NCBI GenBank assembly: GCA_003344405.1
Contig: NOWV01000150.1
Span: 124,001-187,199 of the forward strand
Length of the DNA: 63,199 bases
From: Trichoplax sp. H2
Taxonomy: Eukaryota
Direction of reading: 5' to 3'
The position numbers and the translations under genes are program-made. The first letter of the stretch is position 1, and each line of letters starts with the position of its first letter. Shown here one piece after another: positions 16,943-63,045 of the stretch. The notes beneath the pieces are model-generated. The model saw only the letters and a program-made list of their open reading frames with translations. It did no database searches and was not told the DNA's origin.

Positions 16943-16985
16943 TCAAATGGTAATACTATCTGTTAAATGAGCACATTATCGTAAA

Positions 16986-27956: not shown

Positions 27957-30900
27957 TTCAATCTATATCATTCGGTTCGCTACATAAAGTAGATTGTTTT
28001 GGCTTTATCTCACGCAATCTTCCTAATTTCGAATTTTATATCTGTGATTTTAATCAGTATTGGTGAAAGGTTGTTTATTTATTAAGCTAGATACTATTAT
28101 CATTTCTACGAGACTGAAATAAAGAAATACAGTAATAAATTCTTCTTCAATAGTTATATAATTAATCAGAAAATAAATTACATTCTATTTTATACTAAAT
28201 ACTCAGTATCTTGCTCTTTACTAAGTAGAAGAGTCTGGCTTACTCAATTTATGGCGTCAAGATTTAAGATTATTAATTTTATTCTAAAAACAACTCAATT
28301 AGGTATCAACGATTATACTATGTGACGGATCTAGATATATCATTAGAATGAATAAATATTCGTAATAAGAAAGAATGGGACATAAGTACACTAATGAAAT
28401 TATGATAATTCGCTTCTACTAGACGTTAAGAAATCTTAAATTAGTTAAATAAGTGGAACTTTTCAGCGCGCTTACTCATGATACTTCATGTACTTGTCTA
28501 CTTAGAGAGTCATAAGCGCTTCACTTATGGTTATTGTATAAGATCGGTAAGTAAACTATAAACAACTAAATTACGTGAATAGATGATTTGAAATCAGTTC
28601 GATTCGAAGTTGAATGATTGCAGCCTATGTTTAATTAACCGAACCATTAATATTGTGAACAGGGAATATCAAGATTCCAAAACTAGTAAACAACAGTCAA
28701 TGAATTATAGATGAATATGTAATTATATGTGAGGAGACTTTTGACCTAATATTACAACGTGATATAAAATTACTTTAACGAACAATCTTTAAATTAGATT
28801 TATCCTATCCGTAACCGCATATCATTTAGAGTCTAGTGGCATAGCTATAAGCTACGCTTATCACGGTAGATATACAGTATTAGTACTAACTTTATGAATT
28901 TATCATTATTTTTGATGGGATAAGGTTCATTTAGTCTCCTTTATTCGGTTTTCGATATTATTCTCATTCACTAAAACTATAGAAGTGGCAAGGTACAGAA
29001 ATGTAAATTTACAGTATACGCGTATACTATACCGTACAGTATACGTATTATGTACAGTAAATGGGGATTTTTTGTAATACCGTCACAGTCAAGCAGAAAG
29101 TAGAAGGAAAATTACGCCCATCTCCACAATCAGTATTAAGTGTAGATGGTTTTTGTCGACTTTAAAATGGTCAAAGAGCTTTAGAAATGGTATTAACCAA
29201 TAAACTTCTAAACTCTATCGTGAAGAAGTGGGTATGCTACCATATTGTGCATGCACAGTGTATAAAATATGCAACCGTCAGCGTTCTTCTACTTCCAAAT
29301 TTGAGCGAAAATGCCTGGCTACGCGGCCGCGGTTGTACATTTAGTAAAGAACATACTAAATTCTACATAGAAACTTTGTGTTCGTTAATAGATATTAAAC
29401 ATTTTATTTCTAGTACTGTAGATAATAATTTACATTCTTTTCGAATTACGCTAGAATTTGATCATTTCGATATACGTACTCGTGCGTACATAATTATTCT
29501 CATCCTATTTTACGTCACATACTTATGCTTTCTAGCGGAATTAATTAAGTACTGTAGAATTTAAAAATTATTCTTCAGGATTACACTAAAATGCGACCAA
29601 TTCAGTATACGTAGGTAATTATTTTGCTAATTTCTATCTTGGGTAAACATATCTTCTGGAAGAGTTACGTCACTCTTACCGCCGTCAATAAGTTTAACAT
29701 TTTCGTTTCTTATCGCGTAAATGGCGTAATGATATTTGTTTAGCATAGCTCTGCTATAGTATCTCTACATTACTTTATACTTATTGCGTACTCGTTCAGC
29801 AAGAGTTTACTTAAGTTCGAATGAGATAAAATTTCTTAATGCTGACTGACATAGGAGCATTTCTTGTCATATTGACCTAGGATAAGCCATAGGTAAGATT
29901 TTGCTAATGAAAGTACTATAACACATTTGCCTGCACATTAAAGCTGTGATATAGAACATTTTTTAAAATTTGTATAACTAGATCTAACCAGAATACCATC
30001 GTTACATTTTCGTGCAAAGGCCTAATGAGTAATTGTTATACTGTACTAGCGTTCAGAATAAGTACTATTTTTAAAATCAGGCAACTTTGGTAATGGTGTA
30101 TTGGTAATTGTAGGATTTTGTATTGACGCTAAAATTGGTCGGCTTGGTTTTTCTTCAAATTTACTTTCACTATTGCTGACATCGGTTTCAGCTATTAAGC
30201 TATTCTGGCTTTCTGGAATAGTATTACGAGGCTCAATGCTTGTTTGCTCATTAACTTCTATTTGCACTCTAACAGTTGGTGAGCTTGATGTTTGATTATT
30301 TCTGTTTTGATCCTGTGCTATAGATTTAATAAATGCAATCTTAGGTGAATGATCCTTTAATTCAACTTTATCGCTTGAAGAATCCGCTAATGATTGATGT
30401 TCGGTGTGGTCTTTAACGACACCATGTGCTACTGAAGTTCGTCTTTTATAGTATGGACTTCGTAGATAGTATACAAGGCCAGCTATAGCGATTAAAAATA
30501 CTGCACTTACTGTTCCCACCGAAATTCCAGCCACTGCCCCAATCGAAAGTCCTGTTGCTTTTAAATTGCTACATCTAATGCCAGTATAAGCGTCAGTACA
30601 ATTACATGTGCGTGTATTATTTTGGTAAATACATTTTCCTCCATTTAGACAGAAATCATCATTGCATTCAATGCTACAACCGGGATTGGAGTATGGATTG
30701 CCTTGATAGCCAATCAAACATGTACATGTATATGAACCTAAAGTGTTTCGACATACAGCGTTAATTCCACATGATTCTGCTGCCAGACATTCATTGATAT
30801 CGACACAGCTAGATCCAGTGAAACCAACTTTACATTGGCAATTGTAAGTACCCGGTAAATTAATACAGTTTTGATTACTATTACAGATGTTGTCTGTTGA

Positions 30901-33900
30901 CCATGCACATTCATTGAAGTCGGTAACTGTGACATTTTGTATCGGTTGTCCTTGGATAATAACTGAGCCAGTAGATATGATACTAGCAATTTGGTTTGGA
31001 TTAATATTAGAATTTTGCTTAAATATCGGATAATATTCAGCAATGATACTACCAGCTTTGAATCCTGTAACCTCTACTCGTTCGAAACCATCTTTGGTTA
31101 CCGAAGAAGATTCAAGGGCTAAAGTTAATACTGAAGTAATCTGCTGCTTAAGTGTTTGAAATATAGCAGAATTTGAATTGTTCAAGTCTGATGTGAATGT
31201 ACCACCAATTTTAAGACTTCCAAAAAAGACCTTGCCTTGTTGACAGTGAGAATCGCTTTGAAGTTGAATTTGCGATAATGTATTGTTAGAATAGTATCCA
31301 AGTTTGCAGCTGCAATAATACTTATTCTCAAATATCATACAGGTTGCTCTATTAGTGCAGTTATTATTTCCGTCACAGGTAACAACAGCAGCGCAAGTAA
31401 CACCGTTGCCATAATAACCTGGTTTACAGTGGCACGTAAATGATCCTGGAATATTAGTACAAAGAGCATTACTATGACAATTATATTGGTTACTTGAGCA
31501 TTCATCGACGTCACTGCAATTAATTCGTGCATTTCCAAAATAACCAGCGTTACACTTGCATTGATATGATCCATTAGTGTTAATACACTGAGAATTATTA
31601 ACGCACATATTGAGACTAGTAGCATTGCATTCATCGATATCCTGACAAGTAAATCCATCTCCTGAATAGCCACTATTACAACCACATGTATACGATCCAA
31701 TGCTGTTACTACAAGCCGCATTAACTGAGCACCGGCGTAATCCAGATGTACAATTGTTTATCTCTTTAGTATTGCAATTAAACATTGTTGAACATTCATT
31801 GACATCCTGACATGTATATCCATTCCCTATAAAGCCTGGCTTGCACATACAAGAGTATGATCCATTGTTGTTCATACAACTAGCGTTAGAAGAACACATA
31901 TTTGAACCTGTTAAACATTCATCGATATCGCTACAAATTTTACCATTGCCAGTATAACCAATTTTGCATTGACAAGAATATAAACCAGGTGCGTTGGTAC
32001 AGTTTGCATTTTGACTACAGGGATTATTTTCTAAACATTCATTAATATCGTCACATGTCCAACCATCTGAACCAAATCGATAGCCGTTCATACAACTACA
32101 TGTATAGCTACCATCGTTGTTTGTACATAGTAGATTAGATGGACTAGGATTGGAGTTACACTCGTCGATATCTTCACTCTCAGTCTGGCTTCCATATGTT
32201 AGCGCGTAACCTTTCATACATGAACATATTTCAGATCCGTTTATATAGGCGCAAATTTGTGAACAATTATGTCCAAAATCACATGGATCGCTAACGCTAC
32301 ATGTTAGGTTGTTATTATTTAGTTCAAAACCTTGTTCACATTCACATGTAAACGATCCTTCTGTATTAATACAAACTTGGTCACATGGTCTAAATCGTTG
32401 GCATTCATTTATATCCACGCAAGTAAGTTTATCACTACTTAACTCGTAACCTTGAATACATGAACATGTATAACTTCCGACGGTGTTATTACAAATTTGG
32501 CTACAATTATTAGACATATTTTGACACTCATCTACGTCATAACAGTTTATGCCATCGCCTACATAGCCCGAATTACAAGCGCAGCTATAAGAACCAATTT
32601 GATTAGTACATGTAGCGACATTACTGCAGTTATTTGATCCAGTAATACACTCATTAACATCAGTACATCCTCTATTATCACTATTCAGAGTATAGCCAGG
32701 TAAAGACTGACAACTGTAGCTCCCCTCTTCGTTAATACAAGTTTGACTGCATGCATGTGTGCCATTTAAACATTCGTCATAATCAGAACATTTCAAGCCA
32801 TCACCGACATAACCTATTGGGCAATTACTACATGTATAGCCAGACATCGGAGCGATATTGTCCGTACAAGTAGCATTACTGAAGCATGGTTGATCTGCAC
32901 ATGCATTAAAATCTTGTGTACAATGATTACCAGTCCAAGCAGGATTGCATCTACATTTAACTTGATCAACATTATCAACAGTAACCATTTCGGCTGGGTA
33001 ATCGCATGTGCCATTATTCGAGCAATAGCACATAATAATTTGAGGTGCAAGCTCGCTTCTTGCTCCTTTATTATCTGTAGCAACAAATGTTAATGAAATA
33101 TTCTCATAGGTAGATATATTCCATGTAAATGTGTAAGTTTGTCTATCGAAATGGGAATTTATTGGAGGATTAATGATCTCGACTGTAACAATGTCGCCAT
33201 TATTAGGATCTGTTATGTTCAATGTTGTAGTAAACATATTTCCATAAGTGACATTATATGTCGTCGATCCAGAAATTTGAGGGGGAAATTTTCTAATTGA
33301 TTACTTGTATCTTGATATATCTGAGATGTATCTTTACTAACGACAGCAGCATCAAATAAACATTCACTATTATTACCGCATTGTGCTACGGCTTGGTTAT
33401 AGAGTTCCGTATTATTAGCAAATAATGCTTGAATATTTTGACCAAAGATTGGCGTAAAGTTTGAATCTGAATAATTACTAGCCGATAGACCATTAGAATA
33501 GATAAAAAGTGAATCACTAGCGTTAATCATCCATAATTGGCCAAAAATTGTAAAATATTTGGGATTCTGTTGAATTGATATTCAAGTATGATCCATGTGG
33601 TCGTTTGAAATCATGATTGATATTATCATTCCAAGTACCTAAAAGACCAGATGTTATACCTTTAATTTCATCAGGTCCATTGAAAGCAATAGTTAGCATT
33701 TGTGTTAATAGTGTAGCTTCCATAGATACTCCAGACGTAAAGATCGCAGCTACTGTTATATTTGATAATCATTGTACGTCCTTGTAACTGAAAATTTTTA
33801 TTTATAGTTTGCAATAGAATATATTCACCCAGTCCATTGAAGGTGTATAGTTTTCCATCAAATGTCCTTACATGAGGATCACCCCAGAACCACGCTTTTC

Positions 33901-33978
33901 GCGATGCTCTATATCCAACACATTTATTGATAGGTCTTTTCTTTAAGTAGAGACTACATAGGCTAGATCGCATGCAAC

Positions 33979-33998
33979 NNNNNNNNNNNNNNNNNNNN
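33979..33998. other. Assembly gap between two versions of the same vWD segment
   Basis: 20 N. 33322-33978 repeats 33999-34883 but with internal deletions. Confidence 0.9.
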
Positions 33999-36900
33999 TG
34001 AGATGTATCTTTACTAACGACAGCAGCATCAAGATTTAATGTTAATGCAGCATCAAATAAACATTCACTATTATTACCGCATTGTGCTACGGCTTGGTTA
34101 TAGAGTTCCGTATTATTAGCAAATAATGCTTGAATATTTTGACCAAAGATTGGCGTAAAGTTTGAATCTGAATAATTACTAGCCGATAGACCATTAGGAT
34201 AGGTAAAAAGTGAATCACTAGCATTAATCATCCATAATTGGCCAAAATTGTAAAATATTTGGGATTCTGTTGAATTGATATTCAAGTATGATCCATTCGG
34301 TCGTTTGAAATCATCATTGATATTATCATTCCAAGTACCTAAAAGACCAGATGTTATACCTTTAATTTCATCAGGTCCATTGAAAGCAATAGTTAGCATT
34401 TGTGTTAATAGTGTAACTTCCATAGATACTCCAGACGTAAAGATCGCAGCTACTGTTATATTTGATAATCTGGTAACATCGACATTATTAAATTCACGGG
34501 TTTCATTTTCAGAGAGGCTGTCCATATTAAATGATATTGTTCTATTGACTAAGATATCGATACCATTAAAAGTCGAATTAAGTGTAAATTGGACAATATC
34601 TGCACCAATTTCCATAGTAGCGAATTCAGAGAATACGATAGCAGCCGCAGATAGTGAGCTATTTCTAATAGCTTTCATTGTACGTCCTTGTAACTGAAAA
34701 TTTTTATTTATAGTTTGCAATAGAATATATTCACCCAGTTCATTGAAGGTGTATAGTTTTCCATCAAATGTCCTTACATGAGGATCACCCCAGAACCACG
34801 CTTTTCGCGGTGCTTTATATCCAACACATTTATTGATAGGTCTTTTCTTTAAGTAGAGACTACATAGGCTAGATCGCATGCAACAATCCGTTAGAGCCTC
34901 ATTGTTTCTGGCTTGTAAGGTAGTATTCCTGAAAATAAATGAGCTTCCAAAGGGATAATTAGTAATTAATGAACCGAAAGATTTTCCTGCTAAAGAGTAG
35001 CAGCATCGTTGATATACACGCTCGCCACTGAAAACTCTTCGTGAAAACCTTGATCTCACGTAAAATGTATTCAAGTTTAATCTAAATCGTCTATCACGAA
35101 TAGCTTGAAGGATAGAGCAAGGGCATAGCCTTCGTAGTAATTCATTTAGATAAACATCTGGTAATGGTTCATTGACGAACCAAGTTCGGCAACGTTGAGC
35201 ATAATTAATATGATTTATAGAGGGATCATCAACTCTGTACATCCATCTGCCTTTTTTACCATAATTTCCAGTTGCACTGTCAATCCGTAACAATTGTTTT
35301 GTGTTGGAATTTGGTAATTCATAGTATACATAGGGAATTTATTACTATAGCCTACTCTAGCATTTGTAAGTCGATATCTTTTCCACCAATTCATACCTTT
35401 TGCTATCGATGCGTAGTATCTTAATAGTATTCGAACTAGGCAGCTCATAAGTGTAGCTAGGTACTTTATTACTATAACCAACTCGAGGCCGAACGAACCT
35501 ATCCTTTTCCACCAATTCATACCTTTGTCGGCATATATGAATGATGCATATAAGTTGTCACCATTAGATGACAAGATCAACTGAAAAGTATTAGTAACGC
35601 CATATTTTGCTGTGACAGAGGATGGATATGGTACTAGTTTATGCCAGGTTATTATTGTTACTAACTTCGTATCAAATTTAGTAACAGTTTCATTAAACAA
35701 GCCGTAGCTAGTATCACTTGGATTTCTAGATAGATACTTTTGGTACCGAGCAACATCCATACTAGCATTCGCTAAAATTTCTCTTGTTAAGCTAGTAGGA
35801 TTTAATGAAGTGTACTGGTTGATGTAAACCTGAGAATTTGGAAAAAATCAACCGTCTGCATCAGCGAAGAATGGAGCAATAAAAGGGGCATTTCGTGATC
35901 TGTATAATGATCGATTTGGCGACCCGTAATAGGGATTACTAAATGATACAAATCCATTAATTGAAATCTGTGATATGATGTTGTGGAGTAATAATACAAA
36001 AATTACCGTAAGAAAATAAATTTAAAAAGAAAAGTAACCCGAAAATTGCCACCTTGTAATATGTTATGCTGTAAATTTTCTGGTAAATAATTAATAAACT
36101 AATACCAGCGCTACGTAAAATTCACTTACATATAGTTTACGCTGAAATTTATTCATGAAAAATATTGGTGTTCTCGGGTAGATTACGAAAGGTCTGCCAT
36201 CTACTCTACCGAATGATTGATCGTTTTGTGATGGTCCGTATGGGTAAAGCCTTAACTCTAAGATGGGATTAATGCCGCTATTAATCTGATATCAATTTGC
36301 ATTTCAAAGCTTAAAAAAATCTTATAGGGTTTGAGGTGATAATATACAAAATATTTCAAAATAATTCAAATCTTAAATTTTTTTATCGTAAATAGAAATT
36401 GCAATCGTTATGGCATAGACACGCGTCAAAATCAGACTGTACTGAGATAATGGTGTACTATACCTTTGCAAGTTAATCCGTCTCCTATATACCCAGGATT
36501 GCAGTAACAGCTATAGGAACCTATGGAATTATGACACATATCATTCTGATCGCAGCTGTGCATGGCCAGATCACATTCATTTTGATCTTGATGTTTTACA
36601 GAATAATATTATGATTAATACGGTGCCGTTATTGATTATGCAATTAGTGATCTATCCATTCACTAATTACTGGTCGTGCACAGAAATTTTTAGTAAAAGC
36701 CTGACTATTACATCACGTATTGTACGAAGTATTAATTATTTATATACGTGTTTCGTCTTAAAAGAGTGGCATTTGAACCCTGGTTTGCATTGACAGATAA
36801 ACGAAACATTCCTATTATGGCAAACTGCATTTTCATGACATGTGTGATTTCCAGCCACGCACTCATTGACATCTTCAATAAAATGCATGAAAAATTACTA

Positions 36901-45069: not shown

Positions 45070-47970
45070 TTATGATTTAGTACCATACGCAGACAAGTTA
45101 CTACTAGAAATGACACCAATCAATTGATTTTGGCTAATGTCAGTATTTCGTTTAAAAACGATATAGCAATCCATAATATTACTTCCTGCTCGGAATCCCG
45201 TAACTACTAATCTTTCAAGATTTTCCTTTGTTGCCATTGATGAGTTGAATGTAGCTGTTAAGGCAGATGTAACTTGCTGCTTGAGCACGCGATATGCTGT
45301 ACTGCTGGGATTATTTAATTCTGGTTTGAATGTCCTAGTCAGTCTTAGATTTCCAGAAAAGACCTTCCCACGTTGGCAATGTAAATCAGATTGAAGTTGA
45401 GTTTCTGGCACGGTGGTATCAGAATAATACCCGATCCTACAACTGCAACAGAAGTTGTACTCAAAAATCATGCAATTTGCTTTGTTATTGCAGTTAGTAT
45501 CACCTGTGCTTGTACCAATTTTTCGTGCAATTTAAGCCGTCACCGAAATAATCTGATGCACTTTGACGGTTAAATGATCCAGGCACATTAATACACTGAG
45601 CATTTTTATGACAATGATGCTGATTACTCGTGCACTCATTAATATCGTTGCATTCAATCAAGGTATCACCAAAGTAGCCACTATTACATTGGCAGTAATG
45701 AGATCCGTAAGTATTAAAGCAATGTGAATTTTTTCACTGTATTCATTAACGTCCTCACAAGTGTAGCCATAACCATCGTCACCGTTGTTGCAAGTGCATG
45801 TATATGATCCAATAGCATTACTACAAATTGCATTGACAGAACAGGCATGAATATTAGCATGGTATTCATTTATATCGCCATAAGTTATTCTTTTGCCTGA
45901 GTATTCATGATCACATTGGCATACGTATGATCCAATAGTGTTATCGAAGGTAGCGTTATAAGAGCACCGGCGTATTCCTGTGAAGCATTCATCAACATGG
46001 TTGCAAGTTTTACCGTTACCTGAATAGCGAAAAGCCTTGCTTGCATTGGCAAGTATAAGAGCTAATAGTGTTAGAACAATTAGCATTTGGATTGCATTCT
46101 TTGCTTATCAGGCATTCATTGATATCTTCGCAAATAAATCCATCTCCAGAATAACCTATATTACATAAACAACTATATGATCCATTGTTGTTATTGCAGT
46201 AAGCATCGACGGGACAATTGTGACCATTTGAAGAGCATTCTTTGATATCAGTACAGGTCGACCCATTACTGAAGTAGCCCTGTTTACATATACAAGTGTA
46301 AGAGCCATTACTGTTTAAACAATTAGCATTCGCGTCACAGCGATTACTGGTAGAGTATTCATTGATATCTTGACATGCAAATCCGTTTCCCGTGTAGCCT
46401 CCATCACATATACAATTATAAGATCCATGAATATTATTACAGGTGACTTATTACAGGTGGCTTTTGCGCAAGAAATGTGATTACCCCACAATACATTCAT
46501 TGATATCTACGTACGATCTACCATTACCGGTATAACCATGTCTGTAATAGCAAATATAAGAACCAATATTATTAGTACAGTTGACATTGAGATCACATTG
46601 ATTATAATCATTTGTGGTACACTCATCTACATCTTTACAAGTAAATCTGTTCCCTGTATAGCCAGTATTGCATATACGAGTATATGTATAAGATCCGTTA
46701 ATAGTACCACACGAAGCATTTATAGAACATGAATGAATACTAGTAGCACATTTATTTATATCTGAGCATGATCTACCGCTGCCAATATATCCATTTTTAT
46801 GTCGGCAATTATAAGATCCAACATTGTTGGTACAGTCGGCATTGGAGTCACATTGGTTACTGAAGGTACACTCATCGATATATCCTGATATACAAAGCCA
46901 TTTCCAGTATAGCCTGTATAGCAGTTGCAGGTGTCAGACCCGTTCTTGTTTAAGCAATCAGAAACAACTAAGCATGAATGGTTACCGTAAAGGCATTCAT
47001 TAACATCATTGAATGTTGTTCCATTGCCATGAAAGCTTTGCTTGCATATACAAATATGTGAACCATCAGTATTCATACAATCCGCATTATCACTACATGA
47101 GTTACTAGTAATACATTCATTGATATCTTGGCATCTATATCCATCTCCAGCATAGCCTGGCATACAGGTGCATGTATATGACCCATTCCTATTAAAGCAG
47201 TAAGAATTGCTTGAATACATACATATTGGTATCTGTTAAGCATTCATTAATTTTCGAGCTAGTTGTTCCATTAGCTTAACATAGCTTGATGATTGCACTA
47301 TATAAACTAGTACTACGATAAAGAAGGAGAAGGAGATGTGACAGTATACGTCATTGTATGTACATTCGTATGGTTCATAGTATTAGATGTGTTGCTTATG
47401 ACTTGGTACGCTTTAAATATGAATACTGTATTAAAGTATTAGGGATAAATAGTCATTATGATAACGTTTGATATACAACATATATAATCACTGGATAAGA
47501 GACCAGCTGCGACAGATGTACATGTATGAGCAAGGAGTAGGACAGGCTCTTAAATAAAGACTTACCTAAAACCGTTACAGAGTTATTGCCAAAAAAGTTG
47601 TCGGATGTTATCACTAAGTATCGGCATAAAATTTGTATTAGTGGAAATCGCTAGCCACTTATTTGGCCTTTAGGATAAGTAAATAGAGAATCAGTTGCAT
47701 TGATCATCCATAACTGACCAAAATTATAATATATATCTAAGATTCCGTGGAATTAATATCTATATAGCTTCCATCTGGTCGCTCAAAATCATCTTTCATA
47801 TTGTTTTTCCAAGTATATAGTAATCCTGCTGTGGTACCTTTAATTTCCTCGGGCCCATTAAATGCCACAGTCAGTATCTAGGTTAACAAAGTCACTTCGA
47901 CAGATAATCCTGATGCTATTGGATGCTTTAGCTACTTCTACGTTGGTAAATGTATGATCTCCATTCTCAG
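45070..47970 (-). pseudogene. Paralogue D relic: vWD fragments, decayed cbEGF array and SEA domain
   Basis: 47580-47970 reads vWD-like text ([39 protein letters not shown]). Frameshifted EGF ORFs lie at 46756-47220, 46315-46500 and 45658-46086, and the SEA ORF 45070-45471 has GFRAGSNI. No TM exon or upstream exons were seen. Confidence 0.85.
47320..47579 (+). mobile_element. PPT plus probable 3' LTR of a second, unrelated LTR element inside paralogue D
   Basis: The purine tract AAAGAAGGAGAAGGAGA directly precedes TGTGACAG (47337). The segment has TATATAAT (47481) and AATAAA (47553) and ends GTTACA (47579), exactly where the vWD relic resumes. Confidence 0.55.
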
Positions 47971-48305: not shown

Positions 48306-48499
48306 ATCGAATACCTATATTGCACGAAAGGAAAATATTATGAGCACGATTAAACCGTATTTTATTGAGATTCTGACAAACACCTCAAAACAATTTGAGG
48401 TATATTTGAAATGAAACAATGAATTACGTCGCCAATATACATCTATACATCATTAGACTGTATAAACAAGGTTGAACGAACATGGCATATTTTTGATAC

Positions 48500-48880: not shown

Positions 48881-48887
48881 AGTATCT

Positions 48888-49200: not shown

Positions 49201-51349
49201 ATATATCAGCCTCACTTCAAGAGACAGTGTACAAAATGTCGAGCGCTAACCCGTAAATAAGTTAATAATTCACTGCAGCTAGTGTCAAAATTTCAAGTGT
49301 TTCTCAATGAATCTATTACAATAATCAGCTCTAGATACTGACAGAGCTGTAAGAAGGTTTTCTATTAAGTGGCTTTCTTTCAGGAACGAAGTGAATCAGT
49401 TTTATATTTCAGTTTATGTACGGTAGCAAAAGATTTAGGAGTAAGTTCTTAAATCCAGATCACGATAATGAAATAGTAATCTATCCATAGTAAACGAACA
49501 CAAAAACCAGATCAAGATTGCTGACACGTTATATGAAACATAAGGCATTTAATTCACTGAATAATGTCTTATATCTGAAAATGTAGCATATCTACTACAG
49601 CAATGAAAAGTCACTAATAAGATAAAATGTATCTAACATAATTATTTCAAAATTCTAAGTAAAACTTCAATTTTACTGGATTAAATTGCATTTAGTCAAT
49701 AAATTTGATGAAATATGGATACTTGTATACTTTCTATTATAATAAAAATGACAACTAACTGAATTGAAGCAGTCATTTCAGCTCTCATAGATCACTTTCA
49801 CGGAAATTACTATTACGTAAATTGTAAATTCTAACAGTGCACTTCTGGTTTTCAGTAGGACCCTATCCTACTAGACACTTCATTAGAATTTCTACTAAGT
49901 AATCAACATATAATTATAATATTACAATAATTATAGATGACCCAACTTATCAATAAATATGGCTGATAAAATGATAACCATTAACAAGTTTCATCTGGTA
50001 CTGGTAAAAATGAATCCCTCCAAATTAACTACAATTAATCTGTGCACCTAAATTAAAAGAATGCATAACCATCATAAAATTATAATTACATTGTTTACTT
50101 ATTTAAACCAGAATATATCTTACAACGCCTGAAATTCATTAAACAATAGCCAAGCAATCATTTACGAGTAATTGCGATTTTGAGGTAATAATTTATTAAT
50201 TCTCTGTAACAAATCAATGCATGTCGGAAGCCTTATTCAAAGCCAGAAAGATAGATTCTGGTGTTTTAGCAAGAAATGACATTTAGTATGGATACCTATC
50301 AAAATTTAACGCTCCGTTTTATAAGGCTTATACAAATTTTAGAAATGTTAATGATTTGGTAACCAGTGATTGTAACAACCAAAACGGTATCCAATTATAA
50401 TACGCGTGTGCTTAGTTTACCATCAAACCGTGGATACATTCATATTTTTTAGGCTGCGAATTACATTTTTTGACAACGCGACCTGATGTATAGAGCTGTA
50501 CAATGTACATTCTCCGCTCATGGTGCCTATCAGTTCTGGACTGTAGTGTATGACAGCTCATTTATTATATTATGCAACTGTGAATTATTATGTCCTATTT
50601 CATACCGTGCACCTCTAATTAAGAGTTTAAAGAGGGATTTTATGCCACAATTAAGACAATACACGACCGTACAATGCCAAGCGATAATTTACGACATCTA
50701 AGCCTTGTTGCATCAGTAATCATCAAACTGATAAAAAATAATAAATGTTGTAATAGCATATGGTATCAGTGACCATCATTATACTGAGTATCCTGCGAGT
50801 TGCACCAAATAGTCTTGCGAGAACAAATCATAACATCACAGAGATTTTATTTTGTTTTATTTATTTATTCAGTAAGATAGAAACTGGATTACCAACACTC
50901 ATTCAGTTAGGCTGCAATATCATTATAGACTAAGTGTGGGTAATATAGGCTACAGATATCAATATAATAAAAATCCGAGAAAGACATATTAATCCTGCTA
51001 GCAGTATCCTTATTATTTCATTCAGATTTGAAACTATGAAATAGCATGAAGATTAAATCTAATAAAATTTCAAAACGTGGATTAATTTGAAGTGATAATA
51101 AAGATCTAACAACTTACGATACGATATATATCCATATAAAATTAGAGTCGTCGTGTTTCCACGTTCGTTACGAGAGCTTTTATACGAGTATTATTGAAGA
51201 TATCATGGCTACCAAAAGTTTATTGAGCCAATTATTTATTACGTATTGAAGCGTAGTACATCTCAAGAATTTAACTTGCTATGCTACATGTACGGTAGAA
51301 TCTATGTTATGTTATTTATATAATTAAAAAGACTAAAAATTATAATGAA

Positions 51350-54300
51350 CTAGAAGCTAGCATGAGCTTCAAAATCTTTATTCATGACACCACTAGGCCC
51401 GGGTGTTGGTTTCGTCTCTGTTAATGAATTCAACTCAATATCTTTGTTACTCTGCTTGTCTCGAACCATTGGTTGTTCAAAATGATGATCTAGATTTTCT
51501 TGGCTTTCATCTTTTTTCGCTACACGATTGCGCCTTATATTCTTTTTGTAGTATAGAGTCCACGCCAAAATGATGATAATTATTAATACCACTCCACCAA
51601 CCGATCCGACAGAAATGCCAATGATCAATCCTTGAGGACTAGTACATCTATCACCACTATATCCGCTAGCACATTTACATTTTCGTTTACCTTTTTCAAT
51701 GGTACATGATCCACCATTGACACAGTAATCACTATTACATTGTAGGAAGCATCCTGGTGTCGAATATGGGTTACCATAATAGCCAGCCAAACATGTACAA
51801 TTAAAATATCCTTGGGTATTGGTACAGATAGCATTATTAGCACAAGGATCTCTAGTAGCGCATTCATCGATGTCAACACAACTAGATCCGGTGAAACCTG
51901 ATTTGCAATTACATGTATATGTACCAGGTAAGTTCAAACAATTTTGATTATCGCTGCAATCATTGCTTTCAGGGTTTGCACACTCGTTAAAATCTTCTAC
52001 AGTTACATTTTGGACTGCTTGCCCATTAACTGTCACATTGCTGTTTGACACCACGGAAACTAACTTATTCTGGTTAATATTTAAAGTTTGCTTAAATACC
52101 GTATAATATTCAGCAATAATGCTGCCGGCTCTAAAACCTGTTATTACTACGCGTTTAAAACTTTCTTTTGTTGCAGAAGACGAGTTAAATGTATTGGTTA
52201 AAGCAGTTGTAACTTGATCTTTAAGTGTTGTATATGCAACACTATTAGGATCATTTAAATCTGAATTAAAGGTACCAGCAAATGTGAGACTACCGCTGAA
52301 GATTTTGCCGCGTTGGCAATGAGAATCCGATTGAAGTTCAGTTTCCGACTGTGAACTATTAGAGTAATATTCAGCATTACAACTACAATAGTAGCTACTG
52401 CCATACACCACACAAGTTGCTTTACTACCACAATTAGTGTTACCAGAGCAAGGTACAGTTGACGTGCATGTTAAACCATCACCAGAATAGCCCGATTTAC
52501 AGCTACACGTATATGATCCTGCCGTATTATTACAATTAGCGTTGCTACTGCAATTATTATTTGTTGCACATTCATCAATGTCTTGGCATGTGATGCCATT
52601 TCCAATGTATCCAGTCCTGCATGTACAGGTATATGATCCTGGTGTATTGCTACATACGGCATTGCTATTACAGGTGCTGCTATTTGCGCATTCGTCAAGA
52701 TCTTCGCATATAAAGCCATTACCACTATATCCTGAATTACACGTACATGTGTATGATCCAACGGTATCAACACATGTTGCATTACTAGAGCATTGATCAA
52801 TTTTAAGTAAGCATTCATCGATCTCATCGCAAGAAAATCCATTGCCCGTAAAACCTTGTCTGCATTGGCATGTATATGAACCTTCAATATTGGTACAAGT
52901 AGCATTGCTATCGCATTTATTGGCACTTTCACATTCATCGACATCTTGACAAGAAAATCCATTTCCTGAATAACCAGTTTTACAGGTGCAAGTGTATGAT
53001 CCAGCAGTATTAGCGCATGCAGCATTTGTAGAACAGGTGTGATTACCTGATGAGCATTCGTTGTCATCTGTACAAGTTCTGCCATCACCACTATAACCTT
53101 GCTTGCACTGGCATGTGTAAGATCCGTTAGTATTATTGCAAGTGGCGTTGTTACTACACTGATTGCTTGATAAACATTCGTTAACGTCTTGACAAGTGAA
53201 GCCAGTACCTGAGTAACCAGTATTACATGCGCATGTATATGAACCAGCGCTGTTAGTACAATTAGCATTCAGAGAGCAAGAGTGAGTACCTAATGAGCAC
53301 TCATCAATATCTGTACACATACCACCATTTCCAGTGTACCCTTGCATGCATTGACATATATATGAGCCGTTCGTATTAGTACACATTGCATTAGCATCGC
53401 AATTATTGCTTGTAGAACATTCATCGATATCTTGACAGGTAAAACCATTTCCAGCGTAGCCGGTCTTGCAAGTACAAGTGTATGATCCAGCATTATTAGT
53501 GCAATCGGCATTACTAGAACACATATGACTATTGGATGTACATTCGTTGATATCGGTGCAGACGCTACCATTACCAGTATATCCAGTCTTACACTGACAG
53601 GAATATGATCCCGGCATATTTACACAATTTGCAGTAGGAATGCAAACATTAGTATTTAAGCATTCATTAATATCAATACATGTCCAACCATCTGCTGCAT
53701 ATTTGTAGCCATTCATACAACTACAAGCGTAACTACCGTTGCTGTTATTACAAACTTGATTGCATGAAGGCGGACTAATGTTACATTCATTAATATCTTC
53801 GCATACCGTCTTACTACCATTTGCAAGTTTATATCCTTTCGTGCAGGAACAGACTGCCAATTCGTTTATATTAGTACAGATTTGTGTACAGTTGTGACCT
53901 GGATCGCATGGGTTAGTAACATTACAGGATAGCCCATCATTATTCAACTGAAAGCCTGTCTGACATTGACATTGGTAAGATCCAGGAGTATTAACGCATA
54001 CTTGATCGCATGGTCTAAAGCGAATACATTCATCTACGTCATTGCAAGCATGCTGATCATTGCTTAATTCATAACCTTGATTGCACGAACATATATAACT
54101 ACCGTTTGTATTGCTACATGTTTGATTACAATTTCCATTAGATAAATTACACTCATTTATATCTGTACAATTGATGCCGTCACCGGTATAACCAGCATTA
54201 CAGACACATTCGTATAAACCTGGTTGATTAATACATGTTGCCAATCCGCTACAGTTATGAGATCCTACGGAACATTCATCAATATCTGTGCAACCTCTGT

Positions 54301-57300
54301 TGTCGGCATTTAAAGTATATCCAGATAAGCATTGACAACTATAACTTCCCTCTTCATTGATACATGTTTGACTACACTCATGTGTACCGTTGACGCATTC
54401 ATCGAGATCAGTACATTTTAAGCCATCTCCAACATAACCGGTAGGGCAATCGCCACAACTGTAACCAGATTGTGGAGCAACATTGTCAGTGCACGTGACA
54501 TTTCCAAAGCAAGGCTGATCAGCACATGCATCAACGTCTTGAGTACAATGATCTCCAGTCCATGCTGGGTCACAAATGCATTCAACTTGATCGATATTAT
54601 CGATGTTTACCATTTCTGCTGCATAATCGCAGACACCATTATTCGGACAGTAACACATGATAATTTGTGGTGACAGTTCACTTGTTGCTCCCTTAGAATC
54701 TGTAGCTACAAATTTAAATGAAATATTTTGATACGTCGATACGTTCCATGTAAATGTGTATGTTTGTGTATCGAATTGAGCCCCCTCCGGACGATTAACA
54801 ACATCCACGGTGATAGTATCACCCTGGTTTTGATCAGTCACATTCAAAACCGTGACAAATGTTTCACCAAAAGTGACATTGTAACTTGTTAATCCAGATA
54901 TCTGTGGCGGAAAATTTTCTAATTGGTTAGTGGTATCTTGGTAAACTTCAGATGTATCTTTACCATTGACGGCAGCGTTGAGATTTAACGTTAAAGCGGC
55001 GTCGAACAAGCATTCGTTGTTGTTACCACATTGTGCAACAGCTTGATCATAAAATTCTGTATTATTACCAAATAAAGCCTGAATATTCTCACTAAACACT
55101 GGTGTGAAACTGGGATCTGTGTAATTATTTGCTGTCAGTCCGGCTGGATACGTAAAGAGTGAATCAGTAAAGTTAATCTTCCACGGCTGACCAAAACCAC
55201 TATATATCTGCGACTCCGTAGAATTGATGTCTACATTGGTTCCATCTGGTCGTTGAAAGTCGTCGTTGACGTTATCATTCCATGTGCCGAGTAGTCCAGA
55301 AGTTGATCCTTTAATCTCTTCAGGTCCGTTAAATGCTATCGTTAACATTTCTGTAAGCAAGGTAACCTCTACTGAAATGCCTGAAGAAAATATTGCTGCT
55401 ATTGAAACATTAGATACTCTGGTAATATCAACATTGGTAAATTCACGCGTGTCATTTTCAGGGACACTATTCATAGTAAATGATGTAGTTCTATTAACTA
55501 ATATATCGATACCATCAAAGGTTGCATTAAGAGTAAATTGTACGATATCAGCACCAATTTCTGTAGTTGCAAAAGCAGAGAAAACTGTTGCTGCAGCAGA
55601 CAAGGTTCCATTTCGAATAGCTCTCATAGTGCGTCCCTGTAAAACAAATGTGTTACCTATGGTTCGTAACAGTACATATTCTCCAAGTCCATTAAATGTA
55701 TACTGTTTCCCATCTAATGTTTTAACGTGTGGATCACCCCAAAACCATGCCCTTCGAGGTGGTCTATATCCGGCACACCGATTAATGGGTCTCTTTCTTG
55801 AGTATAAAGAACAGAAACTGGACCTGAGGCAGCAATCTGAATATGCCTGTCTACTACTATCTTGCAGTGTGCTATTCCTAAAAGTAAATGAGCTACCAAG
55901 AGGGTAAGTGGTGATTAATGAACCAAATGATCTCCTAAGAGATGAATAACAGCATCGTTGATAAACCCGTTCGCCGTTACTGGCTCTACGCGAAAATCTT
56001 GATCTAGCACAGAAAGTAAAGATACTAAATCTAAATCGTCTGTCACGAATGGCCTGGAATACAGAGCAAGGACAAGATCTTCTACGAAGTGCACGGAGAT
56101 AGATTGATGACGACGGTTCATTAGCTAACCATGTTTGACAGCGATCGGCATAGTTGATACGAAAAACTGAGGGATCATCGACTCGATACATCCATCGTCC
56201 TTTTCTACCATAATTACCTGTCATACCGTCAATGCGCAATAACTGTCTAGAGAATGAATCAGGTAATTCATATGTGTATCTTGATGTTCCGTTACTATAA
56301 CCGGCGCGAGGTCTCGTATATCTATATCTTTGCCACCAGTTCATTCCTTTATCTTCATATATATATCCAGCAAATAAGTTAGCACCATTAGATGATAATA
56401 CAAGTTGGAAAGTATTAGTTATACCATATTTTCCAGTAGTGGAAGATGGGAACGGAACAAGCTTGTACCACGTAACAGTAGTGACTAGCGTTGCAGTAAA
56501 ATTGCTTGCAACATCCGGAAATAATCCATACTGATTTGAATTAGACGGATTATTGCTAATATAGCTCTGATACTGCATAACATCATTAGTAGCATTTCTT
56601 AGAATTTCCGTTGTTGCATTTGAAGGACTAAACGAAGAATACTGACTGATGTAAACTTGAGACGTTTTATAAGATCGACTGTCTGCATCGGCAAAAAATG
56701 GTGCAATTATTGGTGCATATCTAGATGAATACAACGGTTTACTTGCTGTTCCGTAGTAAGGCCGGTCGAAGGATACAAATCCATTCATTGAAACCTGACA
56801 AATATTATGTCCTTAATGTTACTAAAAGAACAGCTACCAAAGAATTATAAGGAGTTTCAGTGGCCATACTGAAACTACTGTAGTTATTACTCTGAACTTT
56901 AACAACTGTATTTGCATAGTAAAAATATACTTGTAAAGAGTAGAGGATATTATTACGGCACTTACGTAGAGCTTACGATGAAATTTGTTCATGAAGAATA
57001 CGGGCGATCTTAAGTAGACTACAAAGGATGCATCATCTACACCTCCGAATGATTGATCACTTTGCAAATTTCCAAATGGATAGAGTCGCAATTCTATTTT
57101 CAAAGATATAAAACGTAAAAAATTGACGAAATTATCTTGGTATCAGACTATAAAATTCACAGTTAAATACTGTACCTTTACAATTAAATCCATCTCCAAT
57201 GAAACCTGGCTTGCAAGCACAGCTGTATGAGCCAACTGAATTTAGGCATATCGAGTTTACATCACACTTATGTATTCCAAGTCGGCATTCGTTTGCATCT

Positions 57301-60300
57301 TTAATTTAAAAAAATTTCGCTTTTATTTGCTCTGTAATCATTACATTTACTGTAGCTTATACTCTATCAACCAGCAAAAGCATGGAACAAGTAAACCATA
57401 ATTTTTCGCTTATATAAGATCCGTACTAAAGTATTTGCAAAAATACAGTTTGTGATAGCGATACTCCTATGTTTCTACTGGATCCATAGTAAAATATTTA
57501 CGATTTTATTACTCTACTACGATTGCAGATGCAAAATACTAACGCTGTTGTACCTTTAGTTCGCTTTCTAGCAATCATAACATTTTTGATAAATCTAGTC
57601 TGTCTTGTATAACAACGTATACCTAAGTTACAAGTAAGATCTAGCAGTCATTGTCGATAGTTACCGATACAAATAGTGCCATTTCCAGTGTATCCCAAAT
57701 TGCAAATGCATTTATAAGAGCCGTATGTGTTAACGCATCTTGCATTATTATTACATCCAGTTACATTAGTTGCGCATTCATTAATATCTATGGAATCCAA
57801 TGAGTGAAATTATAGCTTTAATAACTTATTCAAAATGAGTAATTTTATAAAGTATTGAATAATACCTGAGCATTGAAATCCATTTCCAGTAAAACCCGAA
57901 TTACATACACAATAATATGACGAATTAGTATTCACACATTGAGCCTGAGCATGACAACGATGACTTCCAATAACACATTCGTTGATGTCTTAATCAATAA
58001 AACGAATAAGCAATAAAGATTAATATAAATACATACCGGACATGGAATAAATTCTTTTAGAATTAATCATTTTATTGTAAAACTGAATCAGTACCCGGAG
58101 TCGTAGTTGTAACATAGTTTGGAGTCGTAGGTCTTGCAGATGAAACCGTAAGGATTGTCGTTGCTGTGGGCGATGCACTTATAGTCGCCGATGCAGATAT
58201 GGAAACGGTTCCAGATATTGAGTCTGTAAGCGAAGAGCTAAGGCTGGTAAACGAACGAGAACTTACGCGTGATAGCGATAAACTGTTTGAAGTTTGATAA
58301 ATACTCCCCGAAATCGAAGACGAGAAGATAGCCGATGATAAATCACTGGAAGTTCGATATACACTACGCGATATCGAAGATGAGAAGACATTGCTTAGTG
58401 TTGGTGAAACAGAGGATAAATCGCTGGAAGTTCGATATACACTACGCGATATCGAAGACGAGACGACATTGCTTAGTGTTGGTAAAACAGAGGATAAATC
58501 GCTGGAAGTTCGATACACACTACGCGATATCGAAGACGAGACGACATTGCTTAGTGTTAGTGAAACAGAGGATAAATCACTGGAAGTTCGATATACACTT
58601 CCCGATATTGAAGAAAAGACACTTGTCAGGGTTCTCGAAACAGAAAACATTCCGTTGGAAGTTTCATACGCGCTTCTCGATGTTGAAGAGAAAGAGAAGT
58701 TGGTACTGCTGTACGATGTACTACTCGATAATGATGTATATGGGAAATTGGTTGATAACCTTGAAATAGAACTGCTAATAGATGCTAGTAAAGTCGTGTA
58801 CGAGGCAAATGTTGTAAACATGCTACTAGATCGCGTGGAAGAAATATAATTGCTTGCTGTTTCTGATAATAGTGATGTTGATGTTGACATATGAGTAGCG
58901 CTGATGCTATGTGTAGCATTTGTTCCATCTAATCATAAGAAAAAAAGTTATGCATTTGAAATATTCAATTTTACGATCTATTCTTAGATATCAGCATCGA
59001 TATAGGTTACACTGATCAGTATTACATTATATTAAGCGTGTAAATATAATAAAAACTTACTGCGACACATAACTCCAACCCAACTATATCTTCCACAATC
59101 CGGAGTTTGAATCCAGCTGCTATTATGAAAGCATTGATCTAAACTGTTGCCTGTACTATTACAAACAATACCACTAAGCCATGTATGCGTAAACCCATTA
59201 GTGCCAAAGTGGCCACAACAATAATATGTAGAAGCTCCTTCTGTAAATCCAAGCTGACGGCAGACTACATTAGCCTCATTAAAGCCAAAATATTTATTAC
59301 AAACTGCACCCCATGACCCATTATGATAAATTTCGACATTTCCCTTATTGCTCTGATAACCATTTACAAGCCTTAAAGTTCCTTCTGCAACAGGACCTAT
59401 TTGCAATCAAGTATTTTTATAATATGAGCGTATGATCCTATTGTGTACAGTCGTACTTAAATCGCTTTTCGTTTTTTTAGCAATGCTATCAGATGTAGTT
59501 TTCAACATTTAAATAGATGTTTGGAAATATTTCCTTGTGACTACAGGTGTATCCGTGATAAAATGTTATCACTACTGATAAAAAACATGTATGAATTAAA
59601 TTGCTGGCTGAATTACATTATTTCAAGTACTTTGCTCGGCCGAGCAAGACATGTTTGAGGCATCTACTAGAGACTAACTAAATGCAGTATTTAGTAAAAC
59701 ATTCTGGAGATCTTCTTTTCGAGGGATAGAAATTATACATGCATATAACAGCGAATGAGTACAAAGCATATTCTGAACTGTAAACATAAGATATTTTATA
59801 GTTGATGTAAGTATAACACCAAAAACCTCCAATATTATAATGTTCGAGTTTTTAAATTAATTTAATGCAATTTTTACAATGTAAATTTATCTATCTACTA
59901 ATAGAATAAAATGCTTAAATCGCGAACTTAAAAGATTAAAATTAAAACTATAACACTAATGTATATCGAGCATGGAATCAGCAAAATAGAACTATTTTTA
60001 AAACTTATTTTCTTGCTCATACCTTGTCTACAATTATTTCCGTACCAGCCGTTAGGACAGAGACAAACATAACTTCGAAGTTTATCAATACAAGTGGCAT
60101 TTGGTGCGCACGGATTAGACAGACATTCATTCGTTTCTATCGCAATAAGTTCAGGGTAAATATTTAGTCAAAAAATGAACAAAATCATTCACGATGACAA
60201 AAATAGTTTATGGTACATGCGCCTATTAAAATGTTACCGATGCTTTTACCTTGGTCACATTGCGCTCCAGACCATCCACTGTAACATGAACAATTATATG

Positions 60301-63045
60301 ATGAATTACTAGTTGCAGTACAGCTACCACGAACGCACGGATATGAAGCACAAGGCCCGGCTATAGTTAAATTTAAAATGTTCGATAAGTTATTTAGAGT
60401 ACCAGTATATTTCAATATAAACAAATATAGTCTCTAAGGCGATATTGACTAACTTCATAGCGATATTATATCATAGTCTACTATAGCAATTTTATGATAA
60501 ATTTCAATACAAACTTTATTCGGCTATACTGGTGCTGGATTATGTATCGCATAATAAGGCTATCATTATATATTAATACTACTGGTAATATTGAAATTTA
60601 CAGCATTTATTTCCTTTCATAAACTATTACCGTACTTGAAATTGAATTACTTACAAATACATTGAACACCAGCGTGATTATATCTGCTGCAATAGCTTCC
60701 AGTGGTAACATTAGAATACGGACAATTATCTATGAAGGTTTCCGTGCCTGTACAATTAACCATTTCCTTTAAAATTGGACCGTTAAAATATCCGTAGCCT
60801 GAACAACAACCAGCACCACTGGTATTATCGAATCCCAATTGGCGGCAAACAACCATAGCGTCACTGATATCCCAGTAGTTATCGCATATAAATCCCCATA
60901 GACCATTCTGATAGACCTGAACAGTGCCGTAAGTTGAGCTGCCTCCGACAAGACGTACTTGCCCATTCTGAGCTATACCTATCATAAAATGATGGTATCA
61001 ATTAATATCAAACGGTCATGCAATAAACAATGCCAACTCTGGTTGTACTGTAGATATTTTAGTAAAAATTTTTTAATACTGTTAAGATGTAACTCTCTCA
61101 TCTAATGATATTTCATCAATTACAACGCGAAATAAAACTTGCTGAAATACTCGAATTTACTGCATAATTTAAAGAGAAAATTCCATTGAACTACCTAAGC
61201 CTATACCTTCAAATAAATTTACTTGAAGTAATATATGCAAATCATGATAATTAGTAAATAATTACAAAAAATGTATATTACATTTTAAATGCTAATAAAA
61301 TATAACAACATGACTATAATTAATTGATAATACAAGAATTTAAAATAGTTTCCCAAAATCTTAATGAGAACAGTACTAAATAAGGTCAACATTGAATTCT
61401 TTTCTTATTATTCGTAAATTCCTACCTTCTCGACAATAATTTCCATAGTAACCTTGTGGACATCGGCATGAATAAGATAAGTGAGCATCAACACAAGTTG
61501 CATTGGCAGGGCAAGGATTAGATGCACATTCATTGGTTTCTAGTAGGAAATAAATTTAATAGTAGTTTGTGTTTGAAATACCATAAAATTCTAATTTTAC
61601 AAATAGAAAATTTCTATGACAAATAGACTGGAAAAAGTATACATCCTGAGTTAAAAATAGATCAAAACGTAATTGTCAGTAAACATGATGCAATTTATCG
61701 CAGATATGCATTTTTCAAATCACTCAAATAAAGAATCCGTTAAACATTTCAAAGATTAAACTGAAAAAAAAAACTACAAGGATATCATACCAATGTCACA
61801 CTGCTGGCCAGTCCATCCAGAGTTACAACTGCAGTTATACCCACTAGTTGAGCTATTAGCATAACATGTACCATGAACACAAGGGTGAGATCCGCAAGCT
61901 CCAACTGAAACAATGAAAAATTCTTACTTATCGAATTATAACAGTACCTTGACATAGTAAGAACAATATCTTTAAGAACATCGAATATTTTATAATGTAA
62001 TATAGTATACGTGTATACTCAAATTCAATAAAATTTATTTACATCACAGTAGTAATAATAGTACTTTTATTTAGAATAAGCCTAAAATTACATGTATATA
62101 AGATACTCGTAATATTCGCCTTTTGAAAATTTACCATATATGTGAGGTATCAGAATCTAATTTTTATCAGGGATTTTATTTATAGCGAGACTCAGAAATA
62201 TTGTATTCACTTTTCATCCAGTAACCTTGAACGAAACAGTAGCTATTAACTTAATATTAAGCTATCACTGACCTATGCAACGAAGACCAATATCACCATA
62301 ACTTTGGGAACATTGAGGAGTATTACCCCATCCACTATGAGAACACTGTGACAATGAGGTTTCGCTACCGGTGCAATTAACGTCTTTAAGCCAATAGGAA
62401 CTATTTGTATAACCATAGTAACCACAACAAAACCATGATCCACTAACATTAGTGTATCCTAATTGTCTGCAAGCCACCAAAGCAGACTGAATGCTAAATC
62501 CCTGGGTACAGATAGGACCCCATCTGTTGTTATGATAGATTTCTAAACGACCCTCATTTGGTACCGGACCGTTATCTAATCGTATAAGCCATAAGCTATT
62601 CGCGTCTAACATCAAAAATTATTACGAAGTTTAGCATAAAAACAAAGTGGTGGACTAAACAAATCGCTTCAGATATCAAAGTTAGGATATCGCAACTTGC
62701 AATATAAACTGATATACTTGTGTAATATATTCGTACATTTATATTTATGCTATAGTAATCACATTACTATACTGAAATAAAATTGAAAGGATTCTCAATT
62801 TCAATACTTAATAAGATATGGTCTAAAGTCTTACAGTAAAAGGATTAAACTACTGACAGATGGCTGTCTTATAAACAAAATTTGTTTTGAAATGAATTAT
62901 AATATATGTTTATATATCATAAACCTTCTACCTGTTTCGCACATAGATCCTGTATAACCAATCGGACATTGGCAATTGTAACTGCCAATGCCATCATAAC
63001 AAGTTGCATTATTTGGGCACGGTGATGAAAGGCATTCATTTATAT
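51350..63045 (-). CDS. Paralogue E (5' end beyond window): EGF-SRCR-EGF-EGF-SRCR-EGF-EGF-SRCR-Ser/Thr mucin-EGF3-NIDO-AMOP-vWD-EGF(19)-SEA-EGF3-TM
   Basis: Exons: EGF 62932-63045, SRCR 62273-62605, EGF 61791-61904 and 61426-61539, SRCR 60655-60978, EGF 60250-60360 and 60023-60136, SRCR 59061-59396, S/T exon 58095-58928, EGF 57866-57988, 57665-57787 and 57176-57298, NIDO start 56966-57093. The giant exon 51350-56794 holds an intact 1812-aa ORF with [13 protein letters not shown] and [25 protein letters not shown]. Confidence 0.92.
58300..58640 (-). repeat. 78-bp (26-aa) mucin-like tandem repeat in the Ser/Thr exon of paralogue E
   Basis: gataaatc(a/g)ctggaagttcgata occurs at 58337, 58415, 58493 and 58571; the unit is [26 protein letters not shown]. 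Confidence 0.92.

Follow-up and report, generated by a model that had tools for sequence, protein, structure and literature searches.

Reverse transcriptase (RT)-mediated intron loss, as described by Zhu and Niu 2013 (PMC3652778), Irimia and Roy 2008 (PMC2275149) and Rogozin et al. 2012 (PMC3488318), is predicted to remove introns that are adjacent, exactly and on the 3' side of a gene, leaving the 5' introns in place; the available part of a rodent table of such cases holds runs of 2-3 adjacent introns. Processed retrogenes also carry an intronless, mRNA-derived stretch, with all of the parental introns gone and at a new insertion site. Among membrane mucins, vertebrate MUC4 and the cnidarian mucin4-like proteins (Haridi 2022, PMC9080433) share the order NIDO-AMOP-vWD(GDPH)-C8-EGF-transmembrane; SEA-bearing MUC4-like proteins have already been reported in cnidarians (PMC9080433), vertebrate mucins are cleaved at GDPH and SEA (PMC4202122), and in Placozoa a mucin-4-like gene whose product has VWD, SRCR and multiple EGF domains has been assigned to upper epithelial cells, with a proposed role in the glycocalyx (PMC12013895, PMC11452194). 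The gene described here, gene E, lies in a 63,199-nucleotide stretch of Trichoplax sp. H2 DNA (contig NOWV01000150.1, positions 124,001 to 187,199; "the window" below), which carries five related units, A to E, clustered in tandem on the minus strand. The RT-mediated mechanism and the protein class are already known, and gene E, with its giant single terminal exon, is a new, unusually large and well-bracketed example.

Like the published RT-loss cases, gene E shows adjacent, 3'-sided loss with its 5' introns kept, and three of the four shared junctions look exact, but the run is far longer -- at least 5 introns by comparison with a placozoan paralogue and up to ~18 by comparison with an outgroup gene, over 4-5 kb -- and it differs from them also in having a probable intermediate and a later family expansion. 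Unlike a processed retrogene, it retains ancestral 5' exons and introns, including two ancestral introns and a 128-bp exon at the start of NIDO. The introns were lost inside Placozoa, most likely by in-place recombination with a 3'-primed cDNA (probability about 0.7) and probably in more than one round. Recombination with a 3' cDNA was one of two origins offered in the initial annotation, and it is now supported by outgroup introns, an intron-rich placozoan paralogue and intronless RNA across the open reading frame (ORF).

The giant ORF of gene E (56794-51350) comprises 1814 codons and a stop in one frame, encoding most of NIDO, an AMOP-like region, vWD with GDPH, C8, an Ig-like region and an EGF stalk, followed by SEA, three EGF units, a transmembrane segment (a hydrophobic stretch, seen by eye) and a tail. 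An AATAAA cluster at 50851-50869, as the probable poly(A) signal, would bring the entire terminal exon to ~5.9 kb. (The A-rich run after this cluster was considered as a retroposed poly(A) tail and rejected, given the age of the event and the overlap of the run with polyadenylation signals.) Modelled with 14 exons and 13 GT-AG introns, the gene gives the exact translation of RDD39041.1, recorded as "Mucin-like protein, partial" from Trichoplax sp. H2. All 12 upstream exons encoding EGF, SRCR and Ser/Thr-rich sequence are phase 1-1, so that the annotated pattern of one upstream domain per phase-1 exon stands for gene E, though not for MAM in the B and C heads, which is apparently multi-exon by eye. 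The head spans 59061..63045 and the gene extends past the end of the window.

Four sequencing runs were aligned to window positions 43300-63199: X6, which is RNA by its record; X4, which is RNA by guess, but spliced, and comes from a separate study; X1; and X13. Single contigs span 50884-56792 in X4 and 50939-56792 in X6, each in one piece and each including ~410-470 bases of untranslated region (UTR) besides the full coding exon, and both runs contain joints for 13 of the 13 modelled introns. Cover by X13 is patchy, with no spliced joint among the joints listed. X1 is DNA-like, reading through introns, and one of its contigs, of 5.9 kb, joins the exon to upstream introns. Most of copy D has no RNA cover, to which no weight is given. 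One odd joint among those listed, from 45619 to 53655, is non-canonical at its ends, with only 20 letters on one side and 10 letters left unexplained, and most likely reflects cross-mapping of EGFs from different paralogues. The giant exon of gene E is real, and the spliced RNA shows no intron inside its ORF; introns there were what the initial annotation had named as refuting its reading.

That annotation had given A, C and E alike single exons of 4.6-5.9 kb. For E this is borne out by ORF and RNA, and A, judged from its letters, is a probable single exon with a clean ORF, but the 5.9 kb of C is no clean exon: it has a TGA at codon 40 (35848-35850), one frameshift and a 20-N gap at 33979-33998, and 425 and 210 bp occur twice in it at 98% identity. 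The last intron and the 128-bp exon do lie in identical position in all three. "About 20 EGFs" fits E, with 16 regular units before SEA and 3 after plus atypical ones, and does not fit A, with 9 and 3. The C gap and a second 20-N gap at 21641-21660 are both flanked by 96-98% identical sequence, which suggests unmerged haplotypes or mis-joins.

Gene E is a transcribed gene for a placozoan MUC4-like type I membrane glycoprotein. Its NIDO scores 85 bits with PF06119 against a cutoff of 25. Pfam on the full-length protein misses vWD and AMOP, and cut regions recover both: vWD with PF00094 at 53.5 bits, together with C8-3_MUC4 (PF23263, 30.8 bits) and with GDPH present, and the AMOP-like region with PF03782 at 17.8 bits, under the cutoff of 25. 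This last region matches platypus and tiger MUC4 at 32-34% in the expected place (E about 1e-13, small subject set), and gene E is 31% identical to platypus MUC4 over 724 aa. Pfam also gives EGF_CA matches, and there is one C-terminal hydrophobic stretch. A search of solved structures returned weak FCGBP, MUC2, vWF and Notch matches only. While the domain order, with the AMOP-like region in the place of AMOP, is that of vertebrate MUC4 and cnidarian mucin4-like proteins, gene E differs in its SRCR/EGF heads (with MAM in some copies), its far longer EGF stalk, its proline-poor Ser/Thr segment and its single terminal exon; it also has SEA, which vertebrate MUC4 does not, and is therefore MUC4-like rather than MUC4 in the strict vertebrate sense. 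A possible mucin segment of 278 aa has 50% S+T but 2% P, in short repeats. (The N-terminal 1650 aa of P0059 (RDD39440), the apparently intron-rich paralogue discussed below as TRIADDRAFT_53736, carry long acidic Ser/Thr repeats before the EGFs, in a mucin-domain-like position.) From its domains, the protein is probably cleaved at GDPH and SEA; a Gly-Ser motif in SEA resembles the MUC1 cleavage site. The domains, with one paper, point to an apical glycocalyx or microbe-binding epithelial protein. The placozoan mucin-4-like gene already reported has VWD, SRCR and EGF domains as do A, C and E, and may be another paralogue. Kamm et al. 2019 counted 45 SRCR receptors in Trichoplax sp. H2, in a text where the words NIDO, mucin and intron do not appear.

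In the animal ancestor, many introns interrupted the region of the giant exon. Of 378 candidates in a metagenome scan based on alignment A1, 317 were confirmed; the scan yielded 79 loci, and ten transcript/genomic pairs were compared by spliced alignment. L018 has the same core order as gene E, SEA included, and the genomic sequences paired with it, L027 (about 90% identical) and L029 (98-100%), both keep the phase-0 intron that precedes the giant-exon start. L027 has 18 further introns downstream of that one, of which 14 are phase 1, roughly one for each EGF, and in the homologous region its exons average 206 nt, the longest being 579 nt. L001/L030 has the retained intron and 7 downstream ones; this gene and L002/L072, which cluster with Actinia and Acropora (100/99), have introns matching gene E residues 349, 538 and 626, and L001 also 126. 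In L045 four stalk EGFs each lie in a separate phase-1 exon. The open frame before GDPH is shorter than 70 codons in 37 of the 79 metagenome loci, with AG exactly at the phase-1 acceptor in 34 of these; the three exceptions are two contigs starting just upstream and one frameshifted L035 copy. The other 42 loci are contiguous: five have intron-bearing genomic partners, those on long low-GC contigs are intronless genes, and the rest are probably transcripts. ORF fragments end or begin at those same sites in P0069 and P0070 (Acropora cluster), P0062 (P0013 cluster) and the close matches P0072 and P0144. Sites 126, 349, 538 and 626 are thus common to cnidarian-clade genes and, by ORF fragments, TRIADDRAFT_53736 of Placozoa, and outgroups do carry introns where the initial annotation proposed mapping them. 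It is accordingly extremely improbable that the region never had introns, that a microbe or virus donated it in intronless form, or that it is a cDNA assembly artefact. Fully intronless relatives do occur on some long genomic contigs, but L024, the sole one of these in the tree, falls in a Mesh/SUSD2-like branch far from E; the intron sites are shared across outgroups; the X1 contig running from the exon through introns speaks against an artefact; and among prokaryote genomes a scan found 3 loci, each with AG at the same acceptor position as above and all belonging to one metagenome-assembled genome (MAG), while one of viral contigs gave 0 of 91 candidates.

The intronless relatives, on long low-GC genomic contigs (L024-L026, L035-L039 and L063), form a subject of their own. 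L024 holds two inverted, near-identical copies (9815-13228 (+) and 16732-19911 (-)) among genes apparently with introns; NIDO-AMOP-vWD is found in L024 and L035, and EGF-vWD in L038. They seem to represent a separate loss of introns within the Mesh/SUSD2-like branch. L051 and L054, ~95% identical copies of a related gene on one 149-kb contig, are a tandem expansion in another animal with introns kept. Three contigs of one bacterial MAG (L080-L082), with split, intron-bearing, animal-type AMOP-vWD matches, are probably host contamination.

The trees place genes of the intronless form in a derived clade inside Placozoa. In an AMOP-vWD tree of 44 rows (2 of 46 having been dropped for lack of GDPH), 13 placozoan-type rows form a clade (100/99), inside which E, A, C, RDD42220, RDD36431 and the ENA proteins P0002, P0005 and P0006 form another (100/99). 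This giant-exon clade appears again in a reduced 18-row tree (100/99), in which the placozoan clade does not resolve; a C8-Ig-EGF tree has it at 99/99. P0002, on a 6,460-bp contig, has intron-like read-through just before the exon start and then a single ORF to the stop, and P0005 and P0006 start just after the giant-exon start site; the exon structure of RDD36431 and of RDD42220, which is on another scaffold, is assumed from clade membership. Since the giant-exon clade is nested in the placozoan family, the introns were lost. The initial annotation placed this loss in the ancestor of the cluster, as one event; the loss is in fact older than the cluster, as RDD42220 and the sharing of the giant exon by copies merely 64-71% identical indicate, and a single event is made doubtful by P0252, discussed below.

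An intron-rich homologue, which had been proposed as a check, is present in Placozoa, as judged from ORF ends. A short-relative search gave 48 proteins, with fragments from ENA and Logan contigs up to 6.9-9.4 kb. TRIADDRAFT_53736 (P0009) is 46% identical to gene E over the core, and fragments 79-91% identical to it break into non-homologous, splice-like read-through at the borders of the NIDO-start exon and at residues 126, ~280, 349, 538 and 626, so that the 53736-type paralogue would keep five introns in its first 630 residues. At 43 codons (from fragment P0221), its NIDO-start exon is as long as that of gene E, and it has EGFs directly before NIDO. A SEA-domain search with 70 matches yielded P0252, a 971-aa Logan ORF that starts in read-through at the residue-538 acceptor and then runs unbroken to the stop. 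P0252 is 67% identical to gene E over C8-Ig-EGF, is sister to the giant-exon clade in the tree of that region (91/90), and with RDD36203 joins the clade in a SEA-region tree (96/95). Its gene, if the contig is genomic, apparently keeps the residue-538 intron without the later ones, and such an intermediate suggests at least two nested rounds of loss. P0187/P0239 end at a donor matching the P0252 acceptor and may be the preceding exon of the P0252 gene; approximately unbiased (AU) tests gave no placement of P0187, RDD36369 or 53736 relative to the giant-exon clade (p 0.39 for P0187/P0239).

P0187/P0239 lack the residue-349 intron, and this isolated loss is the best evidence for piecemeal deletion of single introns or end-joining, perhaps under selection for a compact, highly expressed gene, with no long cDNA tract. 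The loss was probably multi-step and retroelements are scarce, as such an account would have it, but every downstream intron is gone and 13 of the 13 modelled upstream ones are kept, three junctions are gap-free, and five losses out of five adjacent sites would have p = 3e-4 at an independent loss rate of 20%, which is assumed rather than measured, the figure being illustrative. Piecemeal loss therefore seems quite unlikely.

In the conversion favoured here, a cDNA primed at the 3' end of spliced mRNA would have recombined with the gene that it came from, or with a tandem duplicate of that gene, replacing the genomic 3' part, with the 5' crossover within ~125 codons after the retained phase-0 NIDO intron, so that the upstream exons and promoter were kept. 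At least two rounds are envisaged, the first removing all introns after residue 538 (about 2.9 kb, the P0252 state) and the next extending the loss to residue 126, after which the converted gene would have multiplied. It fits this that all homologous introns downstream of the retained one are gone and that junctions 349, 538 and 626, three of the four shared sites, are gap-free between E and 53736 at the protein level, though selection would also remove inexact losses. The retained intron (56795-56965) folds no better than shuffled sequence (z -0.53), and RNA structure thus does not explain its retention.

The 128-bp exon and both of its flanking introns are ancestral, so that the cDNA must have recombined with a homologous gene, and this points against the second origin offered in the initial annotation, a retrocopy that captured exon-shuffled heads. 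In its explicit form, a 5'-truncated retrocopy landed beside unrelated SRCR/EGF exons and acquired a new head; the heads of the paralogues do differ in SRCR, MAM and EGF content, but the supposed junction is not new, the 128-bp exon with its phase-1 upstream and phase-0 downstream introns matching 53736 and the outgroups, 53736 also has EGFs before NIDO, and the SRCRs of RDD42220 group by gene (99; FastTree), which indicates in-gene duplication. Such head capture is very improbable. A processed retrocopy that first landed elsewhere and later recombined with an intron-bearing paralogue in the first NIDO codons would account equally well for ancestral 5' exons with an intronless 3' part, and the cluster has often been rearranged, B having lost NIDO-vWD, D having decayed and C being near-identical to RDD36431 in vWD; it is nonetheless unlikely, as it needs an extra event, no head-less processed copy is seen, and P0252 would require a second chimera with another crossover.

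Several points weigh against in-place replacement by a 3'-primed cDNA. The introns of the placozoan paralogue are read from automatically called ORF ends, at the protein level only, and stalk and SEA introns are shown in outgroups only. The 91/90 support for P0252 is not starred, P0252 has a long branch in the SEA-region tree, and its source may be an RNA contig that retained an intron (the longest P0252 contig measures 14,567 bp, and RNA contigs reach 19 kb). P0187/P0239 are without the residue-349 intron only, apparently keeping ~280 and 538, and so show no clean 3' tract; the placozoan clade is unresolved in the reduced 18-row tree; and the residue-126 junction lies in a loop with indels. 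Non-LTR elements make up 0.003% of the Trichoplax genome and are apparently inactive (PMC2871265), so that the source of the enzyme is not evident today. Finally, intron loss has been tied to mRNAs on free ribosomes (Zhu and Niu, PMC3652778), and that of gene E encodes a membrane protein.

The stalk was described in the initial annotation as fixed, which it is not. Between the Ig-like region and SEA there are 7, 7 and 5 regular EGF units in outer paralogues and 8 in P0252, and 9 (A), 11, 13, 16 and 16 (E) in intact giant-exon members, against 8 in the broken C; RDD42220 holds an EGF pair at 94% identity. The variation arises by duplication inside the exon, so that part of the exon's size postdates intron loss, and in the ancestor the coding sequence of the tract was closer to 4.4 kb (the 53736-equivalent, 1476 aa). 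Stalk length would have changed by unequal crossing-over between EGF units inside the exon, and the heads by duplication of symmetric exons; a quick, low-resolution tree of 24 SRCR domains suggests within-gene duplication. A fuller proposal, for which the odds are somewhat short of even, is a nested ratchet of cDNA-mediated loss (from 53736 through P0252 to the E clade), with the loss of stalk introns then switching the stalk to fast unequal crossing-over in one exon while the head still changed by symmetric exons.

Coordinates of gene E, its lost intron sites and the related units of the cluster (window positions; all on the minus strand)
Feature	Position	Strand	Remarks
Terminal coding exon, gene E	51350..56794	-	1814 aa; ORF, Pfam, unbroken RNA contigs X4 and X6
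3' UTR, gene E (within terminal exon)	50851..51349	-	RNA cover to 50884; putative poly(A) site
SEA domain, gene E	52049..52303	-	Pfam PF01390, E 4e-10
GDPH motif in vWD, gene E	55727..55738	-	putative cleavage site, as in MUC4 (PMC4202122)
Lost intron site, residue 626	54918..54919	-	phase 1, after C8; outgroup introns; P0212, P0220 ends
Lost intron site, residue 538	55182..55183	-	phase 1, vWD end; apparently still in sister gene P0252
Lost intron site, residue 349	55749..55750	-	phase 1, AMOP/vWD; ORF ends including P0231, P0062, P0070; alignment
Lost intron site, residue 126	56419..56420	-	phase 0; introns L027/L029, L030; ORF ends P0199, P0144
Last intron, gene E	56795..56965	-	phase 0, 171 nt; position ancestral, common to outgroups and intron-rich paralogue
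NIDO-start exon, gene E	56966..57093	-	128 bp, phase 1 to 0; ancestral
EGF exons (three), gene E	57176-57298, 57665-57787, 57866-57988	-	123 bp each, phase 1
Ser/Thr-rich exon, gene E	58095..58928	-	834 bp; S+T 50%, P 2%
SRCR head exons, gene E	59061-59396, 60655-60978, 62273-62605	-	
EGF head exons, gene E	60023-60136, 60250-60360, 61426-61539, 61791-61904, 62932-63045	-	
Giant exon, paralogue A	5641..10260	-	1539 aa, clean ORF; RDD39050 / TRIADDRAFT_54443
Last intron, paralogue A	10261-10362	-	102 nt, phase 0
NIDO-start exon, paralogue A	10363-10490	-	128 bp
Paralogue B	18319..21339	-	EGF-SEA-EGF-transmembrane ORF without NIDO-vWD
Giant-exon region, paralogue C	30046..35967	-	broken
Last intron, paralogue C	35968-36129	-	162 nt, phase 0
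NIDO-start exon, paralogue C	36130-36257	-	128 bp
Decayed copy D	45070..47919	-	vWD, EGF and SEA remnants in several frames

Paralogue B holds a recent internal duplication of four EGFs, the units being 95-97% identical. Near 21261 (-), intron-like sequence joins B in mid-EGF beside a possible phase-1 acceptor, and its SRCR/MAM head may be spliced directly onto the stalk; Logan ORF P0242 likewise extends from an EGF to the tail. In copy C, an SRCR exon contains an internally deleted long terminal repeat (LTR) retroelement (42270-43902 (-)) with two LTRs, a 5-bp target duplication and an integrase remnant at 42779-43270; high DNA depth suggests many genomic copies of it, and this decayed element does not show an RT source for the old intron loss. 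At 1-2700 (-) lie small exons of a Sec1/VPS33-like gene, with one weak Sec1 match among 3 small ORFs tested (E 5e-7, below cutoff). Runs of an ACAGT-type repeat occur at 4130-4330 and 16820-16900, this microsatellite being abundant in Trichoplax (PMC2871265).

No report of this gene structure was found in the literature searched, subscription papers being outside the search, and the available parts of PMC6067683, PMC6321704, PMC4948705 and PMC5560861 hold no Trichoplax exon statistics and no mention of it. A 3'-anchored loss of many introns over several kilobases, with a parent-type paralogue and a probable intermediate, is directly testable in existing placozoan genomes, and in this probable surface-defence family the way in which domain number changes depends on gene structure. 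If the nested ratchet holds, one gene family would record successive multi-kilobase 3'-primed conversions in an animal with almost no retroelements.

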